Shown here piece after piece: positions 20,701-23,700 of a DNA stretch of 64,000 nucleotides. Each line of letters starts with the position of its first letter. The stretch's first letter is position 1. A program made the position numbers. The stretch lies in NCBI RefSeq assembly GCF_053078305.1, contig NZ_CP166879.1. One strand, written 5' to 3'.

Positions 20701-23700
20701 TGTACGTCGGAAAGCCTGAGATCGCGCGTTCAGCGTCGATTTTCAGCGCTCACGGCGCTACAGGGAACATCTGGTGCTGAATATCTTCGTTCCCGTGGCA
20801 TATTCAGTCTTCCGGTTGAGGGAGTTCGCTTCAACAGCCAGCAAAATTATAACGGGCGCATGTTCCAGTCTCTTTATGCCCTGGCGACCGATGACAAGGG
20901 AGAACTGTGTTACCTGCATCAGACATTGCTTGATGGAGCTAAAAAAGCAGACATTGGTATCAGCGCCAGAAGGCTCAAATCTTTACAGGACGATAACTAT
21001 CTGGACCATGCCCGGTCAGTTGCTATCAGGATGTTTCCGGTAGCCAGTACACTGGGTATAGCTGAAGGTATCGAAACCGCGTTGTCCGCACATCAGATTT
21101 ACAAAGTAAATACCTGGGCAACCATTAACAGTGGTTTTATGAAAAAGTTCCGCGTACCGGCGGGAGTCACCCATCTGATTATTTTTGCCGATCGCGATGA
21201 ATACAGTGCTACCGGAATGGCTGCGGCCTGTGAATGCGCACATGCAAATCTCCAGGCCCGAAATGACATTCAGCGGGTAAGTGTCCGGTGGCCTGATCAT
21301 GATGATTTCAACAATATGCTCATGAACGGCGATCAGGTTCGGGAACTGGTTTTTTACAGAAAAAAGGCGGTTGCGTGATGCGTACGGACAATCAGGTACA
21401 TAAAGCTTTATTCACTATCCCGGCGGCAGCGTACAGCGCCGTTCCGGCAAATATCAAACCTCTGCCAGAACAAAGGAGGATCACCGGACATAAACAGACT
21501 GATGCTTATCTCTGGATTCTGGAGGTTATTCACCTGAACGAGGCCGTACATCTGGACGCAGCCGAAGCAGCACTGGAGAAACTCAAAATAACGCCGGAAG
21601 AAGCGAGTGAACGGTATGGACGTTATTTGCAGGAGATTAATGTTGATCCTTTCCAGATTGCTTTCGCAACCATAGGCATGGATAACCCGGCGCAGGCGAT
21701 CAGGAATGCCCGTGAGAATATCAAAAAAGCCGCATCAGTCAGGGCCACATTTGGCAGCTATGAGGCAGCACTCGACGATGTGGAGGCTGAGCGGATAATT
21801 CGCACCTCCCCGAAATTTATCGACGATTACTACTGGGGCTGGACTGCGGCAGAGAAAAAAGCCGGAAGTATTGACGGTGTTCGCTCAAATGAAATTGATG
21901 ATCAGCGTCGTGCATATGTTGATGGCTATCGTGATGTACTGCCAGAGCCTCATACATTGTCAGACGTTGTTCGTGAGTTTATTTACTGGGACTGGCTTTA
22001 TGAGATGCGCCAGACAGCGGGGAGAGAAACAGGGGACAAATACGGTTTCACAGGTGAACATCATGAGTCAGTATATGATCGGCAGTTCTGGCTCGAAAAT
22101 TTGCTGGGAAAAATAAAGCCTGTGACGCGTGATGAAGCGGTTGAAGTGTGTCGCTGGTTTCTGGCAAGCGGAAAAGATGAGTACATGGAAGACAATGGTT
22201 CAGCGGTCATTCTCAATCTGGTTGGGGAGTGTGAGCAATGAAGCCGGAGATATCCAGTAGACATTTTCCCCCTGAGCATTCAAATCAGAAAAAGTATGGT
22301 TACAGCGGAGTACAGAATAATGCGTGATATCCAACAGGTTCTGTCCCGATGGGGTGCATGGGTGGTAAATAATCATGAGAGTGTGGCATGGTCCGGCGTC
22401 GCTGCCGGATTTAAGGGAGTGATCCCATCAAAGGTTAAATCACGGCCTCAGTGTACCGATGATGATGCGCTGATTATCAGCAATTGCATGGCGCAACTGA
22501 ACGTCAACAACAGCGATTTGCATGATTTTCTGTATGATTATTATGTGTTCGGGATGACGCTTATGGGACTGGGCCGTAAGCATGAGCGCTCTGATTGCTG
22601 GGCCGGGCGGGTACTGCAAAAAGCTGAAGGTGTTATTGAGGGGATGTTGATTATGCAGGGAATAAAACTGGAAATGGACAGATACGTTGAGCGTGAACGA
22701 TCAGGGGCACAGGTCAGTCAGTTTTCCGGACATACGGGAAATTGAAAGCGCGGGGTTTTACTGTAGAATGACTGCGGGTGCTTGAGGGGGTCTGCCTCGG
22801 GCATGCTGCCGTAAGGCAGACGGAGAAAAGCCCCAGTTAACATTACGTGTCCTGCAAGACGCTTAACATTAATCTGAGGCCCAATCTATGTCACACAACC
22901 GTAGGTTAGCCTCTTACGTGCCGGAAGGCAAGGAGAAGCAGTCTATGAAGCAGCAAAAGGCGATGTTAATTCGCCCTGATCGTCATCTGTTTAACCGTCA
23001 TAGTGACGGCACTGGTAACGAGGAAAGACCTCTGCGAGGTACGGATCCGAACCGGCCAGACGGAGGTCGCTGTCTTCGTAGACTACGAATCTGAGAAGTA
23101 AGAGACCAGGCGGGGGAGTAATCTCCCGCCACCTCTGATGTGTCAGGCATCCTCAACGCACCCGTACTTTATTTGTCATATGCTCCGCAAAATGCAGGTT
23201 GTCGTTGCAACCCGTGCGGTAATTTTTTGTGTGCGAGTGCTCAAAAAACGTTGATTTTCATAAAAGGATAATTTTATGCTGCCAGACCAGCGACCAGCGA
23301 CCAGCGACCAGCGACCAGCGACCAGCGACCAGCGACCAGCGACCAGCGACCAGCGACCAGCGACCAGCGACCAGCGACCAGCGACCAGCGACCAGCGACC
23401 AGCGACCAGCGACCAGCGACCAGCGACCAGCGACCAGCGACCAGCGACCAGCGACCAGCGACCAGCGACCAGCGACCAGCGACCAGCGACCAGCGACCAG
23501 CGACCAGCGACCAGCGACCAGCGACCAGCGACCAGCGACCAGCGACCAGCGACCAGCGACCAGCGACCAGCGACCAGCGACCAGCGACCAGCGACCAGCG
23601 ACCAGCGACCAGCGACCAGCGACCAGCGACCAGCGACCAGCGACCAGCGACCAGCGACCAGCGACCAGCGACCAGCGACCAGCGACCAGCGACCAGCGAC

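Follow-up and report, generated by a model that had tools for sequence, protein, structure and literature searches.

What becomes of a prophage toxin gene whose reading frame is interrupted by one extra base? Such a gene may be inactivated, may appear broken because of a sequencing or assembly error, or may be translated through regulated frameshifting, and an earlier sequence-only reading raised all three possibilities for a hok-type toxin gene in a 64,000-nucleotide (nt) stretch of contig NZ_CP166879.1 (NCBI RefSeq assembly GCF_053078305.1), here called the window. The gene lies between an antiterminator Q gene and a restriction-modification (RM) module; positions given below are those of the window, on the plus strand unless noted otherwise. 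Our analysis points to the first possibility: with a probability of about 0.9, insertion of a single T after codon 9 inactivated a hokW toxin gene, in a cassette that is otherwise complete, and the resulting allele is inherited in one prophage lineage.

A hokW toxin gene interrupted by one base

From the hok ATG at 22945, translation in the first frame gives MKQQKAMLI followed by RPDRH...RLRI and a TGA stop codon at 23092-23094, while the shifted frame from 22973 encodes ALIVICLTVIVTALVTRKDLCEVRIRTGQTEVAVFVDYESEK and stops at 23099-23101. The hok locus (22945-23101) is therefore 157 nt long, that is, a multiple of three plus one. Alignment of window positions 22750-23135 with seven relatives traced the break to a single extra T at 22970/22971, with TTAATTCGCC in the window and TTAATCGCC in the intact hokW of phage 933W and in JNEC-KY171 and OkiPb01714. 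The frame break after MKQQKAMLI, its position near 22971, and the length of the locus had all been read correctly from the DNA, and the comparison with related prophages that had been proposed as a check shows intact sisters carrying a single T at the insertion site.

Formal similarity to Hok, the absence of which was to have overturned the assignment, is clear once the inserted T is removed. The repaired 51-amino-acid (aa) protein scored 81.1 bits against Pfam family PF01848 (HOK_GEF; cutoff, 22), whereas neither frameshifted peptide (49 aa when read from the hok ATG, 68 aa when read from the mok ATG at 22888) had a Pfam or NCBIfam match; by inspection of their sequences, both are basic, hydrophilic, and without a membrane helix. 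For the repaired protein, NCBIfam gave only Hok subfamily matches below threshold and added nothing to Pfam. The actual open reading frame (ORF) thus lacks the features expected of a Hok/Gef gene (about 50 aa, an N-terminal transmembrane helix, and a PF01848 match), and only the homology survives, once the indel is taken out. We class the locus as a pseudogene of the Hok/Gef family rather than a functional member, as the "inactivated toxin" option had it. The label "hokD/relF-like" holds for the family and not for the allele: the repaired protein is identical to HokW of phage 933W at 51 of 51 positions and to HokD at 47 of 51, and on these identities hokW, rather than hokD, is the appropriate name. 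An internal GTG at 23003, which would give a 32-aa C-terminal Hok fragment, was dismissed, as it has no Shine-Dalgarno sequence and the fragment has no transmembrane segment.

An inherited allele of one prophage lineage

Single-base indels are the commonest assembly artefact, and the broken frame could in principle reflect an error of sequencing or assembly in a simply intact hokW gene. The distribution of the TT allele leaves this explanation hardly credible. Hok loci are very common in Escherichia coli prophages (bioRxiv 10.1101/2025.08.07.668861), and the 386-nt region matched 4,708 of 5,426 complete E. coli genomes as well as 79 phage records, which places the reality of the locus far above chance. 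Exact matching with a 61-nt probe centered on the insertion found TT in 5 of the 4,539 genomes carrying the region. Three of these genomes (2012EL-2448, 2015C-3121, and 2018-166) are 100% identical to the window over the 386 nt, DETEC-S792 differs by one single-nucleotide polymorphism (SNP), and 04-00955 differs by two. They originate from the USA (three times), China, and Germany and represent separate laboratories and independent assemblies. An exact-pattern scan of IMG/VR isolate contigs gave, among the matches listed, 3 contigs with TT and at least 120 with a single T.

The window itself differs from the three 100%-matching genomes by one base just upstream of the cassette and is therefore a further source of the allele. 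Moreover, the change is from T to TT and does not lie in a homopolymer run. Since the same T recurs in five independent complete genomes and three IMG/VR contigs outside any homopolymer, we regard TT as a genuine variant inherited within one prophage lineage, and the suggested assembly error is refuted. Every TT copy was found in the same Q-linked prophage context, two of them sharing the extra SNP of 04-00955; identity within the TT lineage is at least 99.5%, and diverged hok lineages do not carry the allele. In the TT genomes, the NCBI RefSeq annotation pipeline (PGAP) already labels the locus "Hok/Gef family protein, frameshifted" and marks it as pseudo. Its pseudogene status is thus already known, and it is an ordinary pseudogene.

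Inactivated hok copies are not rare. A truncated allele with a 41-aa product occurs in two IMG/VR contigs, and the sister prophage in JNEC-KY173 (locus L006, positions 4196-4350) carries a hok frameshift of another kind, caused by the loss of 1 nt in CCTCTGCG. The 3' hairpin of the JNEC-KY173 locus has a G run that is longer by 2 nt, and its frameshift may therefore be a long-read assembly error or may be an independent inactivation.

Lack of support for programmed frameshifting

The third possibility is that programmed +1 ribosomal frameshifting, or transcriptional slippage, yields full-length Hok at a low, regulated level. Its appeal lies in the downstream frame, which still encodes a perfect HokW, so that a +1 shift at ATT-C would produce the exact wild-type protein. 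To restore the frame, the shift would have to fall within TTA-ATT-CGC-CCT, and reading the sequence at 22963-22980 for a shift motif turned up no slippery or hungry-codon site with a stimulator. At none of these codons could the P-site tRNA pair again after a +1 shift, the A site holds neither a stop nor a rare codon, no stimulatory Shine-Dalgarno sequence is present, and TT, with no A/T run around it, is too short for slippage of RNA polymerase. The distribution of the allele also speaks against a regulated site: TT is restricted to one near-identical lineage and hence gives no sign of selection on the shift site, intact sister prophages exist, and thousands of relatives are in frame. Regulated frameshifting is therefore unsupported and almost certainly not the explanation.

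The same downstream frame supplies an argument against inactivation. The locus shows no further decay, and the codons beyond the insertion still spell out HokW without a change; this fits a recent mutation and would be equally expected if the downstream frame were still in use.

Control elements of the cassette

Apart from its coding frame, the cassette is complete as judged from its sequence. Homology to 933W extends from the -10 hexamer (about 22763) to about 23172, where it stops, at approximately 92% DNA identity, and within this extent we recognized an overlapping mok leader ORF, a predicted antisense Sok RNA with a promoter and a terminator hairpin, and both the tac/fbi and the tac/ucb pairings, as expected of a hok/sok locus.

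The hok promoter, TTGAAA-16-TAGAAT at 22742-22769, was identified by a promoter scan and context alignment and agrees with the consensus at 10 of 12 positions. Its -10 hexamer is common to 933W hokW, while its -35 hexamer is seen only where the cassette is linked to Q: the native promoter, found in 933W and also in a nin-region copy, reads TTTGCG-17-TAGAAT, and the Q-linked TTGAAA-16 version overlaps the Q stop codon. The Q-linked promoter is thus near consensus, for a toxin mRNA that is ordinarily transcribed from a weak one.

The 5' end of the hok mRNA, tac (22774-22788), has two predicted partners. In the fold of 22774-23168 (-168.1 kcal/mol, z = -6.2), tac, as the first 15 nt, pairs with the fold-back inhibitory element fbi at 23150-23165, which is kept in 933W; in an RNA cut back to 23131, tac pairs with ucb at about 22795-22804 instead. 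Among 107 unique hok cassettes drawn from many genomic contexts, which we used for covariation counts, the tac pairs are kept in 91 to 97%, with little covariation. The leader of the mRNA, which is the target of Sok and includes the mok ribosome-binding site, matches Rfam family RF01794 ("sok") from 22776 to 22947 with 97.6 bits (gathering score, 59; E = 1.4e-22).

The mok-like leader ORF (22888-23094) was taken from the ORF list, and the annotated 933W mokW start maps to its ATG, which has GAGG 9 nt upstream. As in mokW, it is in frame with the hok ATG; it reads through the frameshift and has a 68-aa product that is not Hok. On the minus strand, the antitoxin Sok was placed at 22826-22896 by transferring the coordinates of the 933W sokW feature. 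Read from 22896 to 22826, it folds into a 14-nt single-stranded 5' tail and a long hairpin followed by four U residues (-23.8 kcal/mol, z = -3.6). The putative sok promoter, TTGCCT-17-TAACCT at 22903-22931 (minus strand), ends 7 nt before the mapped Sok start and was assigned from the sequence itself by comparison with the sok promoter of plasmid R1. Another promoter-like site on the minus strand, TTAACA-18-TAGACT from 22969 to 22940, adjoins the inserted T and was treated as chance, because the inserted base, being upstream of the -35 hexamer of this site, leaves both hexamers and their spacing unchanged, and because a Sok start at 22896 needs another promoter.

The region that spans the mok start and the Sok 5' recognition sequence (22881-22902) reads TCTATGTCACACAACCG in the window and TCCATGCTGAACACATG in 933W and some Q-linked relatives. 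This variant patch looks like the product of recombination and could change the target specificity of Sok.

Comparison with known hok/sok systems

The closest known system is hokW/sokW/mokW of Stx2 phage 933W and of prophage Sp5 of strain Sakai (VT2-Sakai), which shares with the window the DNA identity from the -10 hexamer to fbi and the protein identity given above, a mok gene in frame with hok, and an antisense Sok over the mok start. The two differ in that the window toxin frame is broken by the T, in the -35 hexamer and spacer, and in the variant patch at the mok start and Sok 5' region. They also differ in location: hokW lies near the right end of the 933W genome on the opposite strand, while the window cassette lies between Q and the RM module.

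The hokD (relF) gene of the Qin prophage of E. coli K-12 is annotated as intact in the genomes sampled, and its locus is said, after Pedersen and Gerdes (1999), to be without the upstream regulatory part; in the window copy, by contrast, the regulatory set is whole and the ORF is broken. The same work of Pedersen and Gerdes in Mol Microbiol reportedly describes hokA, hokB, hokC, and hokE of K-12 as natural loss-of-function loci that persist as remains. Whereas the chromosomal hok loci of K-12 have been inactivated mostly by insertion sequence elements, point mutations, or rearrangements, the window cassette owes its inactivation to the insertion of one base and is otherwise pristine.

The window mok is in frame with hok, the two starts being 57 nt apart, whereas mok of plasmid R1 is out of frame with hok. 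The window otherwise resembles plasmid R1 hok/sok in the predicted closure of tac by fbi, the 3' stem-loop, the refolding to tac/ucb, and a Sok RNA antisense to the mok initiation region. It differs in its prophage rather than plasmid location, in its dead toxin, and in the protein itself, as HokW is only about 44% identical to Hok of R1 (PMC8621323).

Expected behavior of the cassette

A model for hok mRNA in which tac, fbi, ucb, and 3' processing act as a switch is available for plasmid R1 (PMC9841398). If the window cassette follows it, transcription from the hok promoter would still give an mRNA that is about 390 nt long at full length and is closed by pairing of tac with fbi; trimming of its 3' end to the hairpin at 23109-23130 would then allow tac to pair with ucb and would open the mok ribosome-binding site, and Sok (22896 to 22826, minus strand) would still pair with the leader. 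Translation from the mok ATG at 22888 or the hok ATG at 22945 would give the basic, hydrophilic 68- or 49-aa peptide. As neither peptide has a transmembrane segment, the killer function would be lost, and the TT allele is predicted to be nontoxic. By analogy with R1, the most likely present state is a transcribed, nontoxic hok pseudogene accompanied by an intact, now orphan, Sok.

HokW of the intact system has been shown experimentally to be a toxin of the inner membrane that is neutralized by SokW, and in Sp5, where induction leads to its production, it raises phage release roughly 2-fold (PMC8621323). This help to phage release would presumably be lost from the TT lineage along with toxicity. 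The sister prophages of 2012EL-2448 and JNEC-KY171, which differ essentially by one T, constitute a natural knockout that could be used to test the role of HokW in the release of lambdoid phages, and the same pair could show whether an orphan Sok has any effect.

Such an effect is the basis of another explanation for the persistence of the locus, namely, that it is kept as an orphan antitoxin, with Sok shielding the lysogen from related hok loci, whether these reside in other prophages or arrive on incoming elements. The Sok gene, its putative promoter, and its terminator are intact, and the carrier genomes contain one to three hok-family places each. The Sok 5' recognition region (the complement of about 22885-22896), on the other hand, differs from the 933W type at many positions, which argues against broad cross-reaction, and the absence of decay is explained as well by the youth of the mutation. 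We consider a shielding role quite improbable and favor simple inactivation of hokW.

The 3' hairpin and transcription toward the RM gene

Beyond the toxin, the sequence-only reading proposed that a 3' fold-back hairpin doubles as a terminator directly before the RM promoter region, so that the remnant may shape transcription that enters the RM gene from a Q-dependent late promoter. The hairpin does exist, at 23109-23130, with a 9-bp stem, a GUAA loop, and a folding energy of -17.3 kcal/mol. It is not the fold-back element, which is fbi, 20 nt further on, nor is it a terminator, as its tail (ACCTCTGATGTG / ACCUCUGAUGUG) has no U tract and a terminator scan called no intrinsic terminators in 22600-23400. 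A match of Rfam CsrC to the same positions (11.8 bits, E = 0.63) was set aside as noise that merely reflects a GC hairpin.

In the 107 unique cassettes, the stem of this hairpin shows compensatory changes, with pair 23113:23126 occurring as GC (27 cassettes), AT (39), or GT (36) and pair 23116:23123 occurring as GC (99) or AT (5). Because the stem is kept by such changes across contexts, including hok cassettes with no adjoining RM gene, we interpret the hairpin as a structural element belonging to the hok mRNA. The R1 analogy suggests that trimming stops there and that it probably forms the 3' end of the processed, truncated mRNA and stabilizes it.

A more plausible place for transcripts from the hok promoter to end ahead of the RM ATG at 23276, which lies 175 nt after the hok stop codon, is a bulged, terminator-like hairpin followed by six T residues at 23185-23228. 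It emerged from folds and alignment, the strict terminator scan having made no call there; it lies outside the 933W homology and is kept in the Q-linked relatives.

These elements bear on the view that the remnant is mainly a transcription element whose 3' hairpin terminates or modulates late-promoter transcription into the RM gene. The near-consensus hok promoter points at the RM gene with no other consensus promoter between it and the ATG at 23276, so that read-through from it could add to RM expression, and the hairpin and six T residues at 23185-23228 might restrain such read-through. The hairpin originally singled out, however, belongs to the hok mRNA for the reasons given above. Moreover, the frameshift touches none of the transcription elements and falls instead in the loop of a small hairpin in the full-length mRNA fold, and intact and frameshifted relatives have the same flanks. 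Together with the position of the late promoter described below, these observations make a primarily transcriptional role unlikely.

Position of the presumed late promoter

The antiterminator Q gene (22320-22745) was recognized by Pfam PF06530 (153.7 bits) and is annotated by PGAP as "antiterminator Q family protein" in relatives. Its product is 68% identical in amino acid sequence to Q of phage H-19B, and the stop codon of the gene shares bases with the -35 hexamer of the hok promoter. At the DNA level, the similarity to H-19B ends about 50 nt short of the 3' end of Q, and the sequence that follows Q in the window is unlike the post-Q segment of H-19B.

The counterpart of that segment is located downstream of the RM genes: window positions 27358-27520 (about 160 nt) are approximately 95% identical to the sequence directly following Q in H-19B. 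Here, directly after the RM specificity gene, a promoter scan and the H-19B identity delineate a late-promoter region of H-19B type at 27368-27450, consisting of a candidate late promoter, TTTACA-16-TATCAT (27368-27395; 10 of 12 consensus positions), and a first intrinsic terminator (27426-27445) followed by a T run. In H-19B, the late promoter region sits between Q and stx, as placed in a passage of PMC6266700 citing Neely and Friedman 1998. The order hok, RM, and then H-19B-like late-promoter segment recurs in the relatives, and the hok/sok and RM genes (22746-27357; 4.6 kilobases) would thus sit between Q and its presumed late promoter, PR'. Homology suggests that Q acts at 27368. Q-modified polymerase starting at a PR' located beyond the RM genes would bypass both hok and RM, and Q-dependent late transcription entering the RM gene through hok is therefore unsupported.

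We also considered the hok promoter (22742-22769) itself as the Q-dependent late promoter and rejected it in favor of 27368-27450, with its promoter, terminator, and H-19B identity; in addition, the initially transcribed hok region is without a -10-like pause element. The particular Q 3' end found in the window occurs in 28 of 5,426 complete E. coli genomes, hok is attached to it in all 28, and the junction is invariant. A hok-less version of this junction, which would represent the ancestral state, was sought among the complete E. coli genomes and was not found.

With respect to annotation, these results replace hokD by hokW, show that the pseudogene is real and does not stem from an assembly error, and move the presumed late promoter to a site beyond the RM genes.

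The setting between Q and RM allows one further speculation, namely, that the inactivated cassette persists because it controls a phase-variable RM gene at the RNA level, with the strong hybrid hok promoter, the structured leader, and the 23185-23228 hairpin setting the amount of read-through, and that loss of the toxin was adaptive since the improved -35 hexamer made Hok too dangerous. Such selection would explain at least two independent frameshifts (TT and that of JNEC-KY173) among only 28 Q-hok genomes. We nevertheless judge it a distinctly long shot compared with simple inactivation of hokW.

Repeats in the RM genes

The hok pseudogene matters little in itself, and a heptamer repeat in the adjoining RM gene is of more interest. 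The RM methyltransferase/endonuclease-like gene (23276-26176) carries at its 5' end, shortly after the ATG, a perfect tract of (GACCAGC)x120 at 23285-24124, which is in frame in the window and yields a 966-aa ORF. Ten related prophages have 16 to 83 copies of the heptamer. Read from the ATG, the RM ORF is open in four loci (the window, L001, L004, and L006) and closed in six (L003, L005, L007, L008, L010, and L011), and the tract has the look of an unusually long phase-variable repeat. No paper turned up when the full text of the literature was searched for the heptamer sequence.

In public annotations, the heptamer tract is covered by reverse-strand "hypothetical" or "YXWGXW repeat-containing" proteins, and the methyltransferase gene begins after the tract, as in L001 (6525-7552) and at the equivalent positions in L003, L004, L006, L007, L008, L010, and L011. 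These reverse-strand proteins are probably annotation artefacts of the repeat.

A second perfect repeat occurs in the middle of the specificity-subunit gene, where a 24-nt unit is present in 2.8 tandem copies (26657-26723) and encodes IEELEAAH repeats. In type I-like enzymes, the copy number of central spacer repeats of this kind can change which sequence is recognized.

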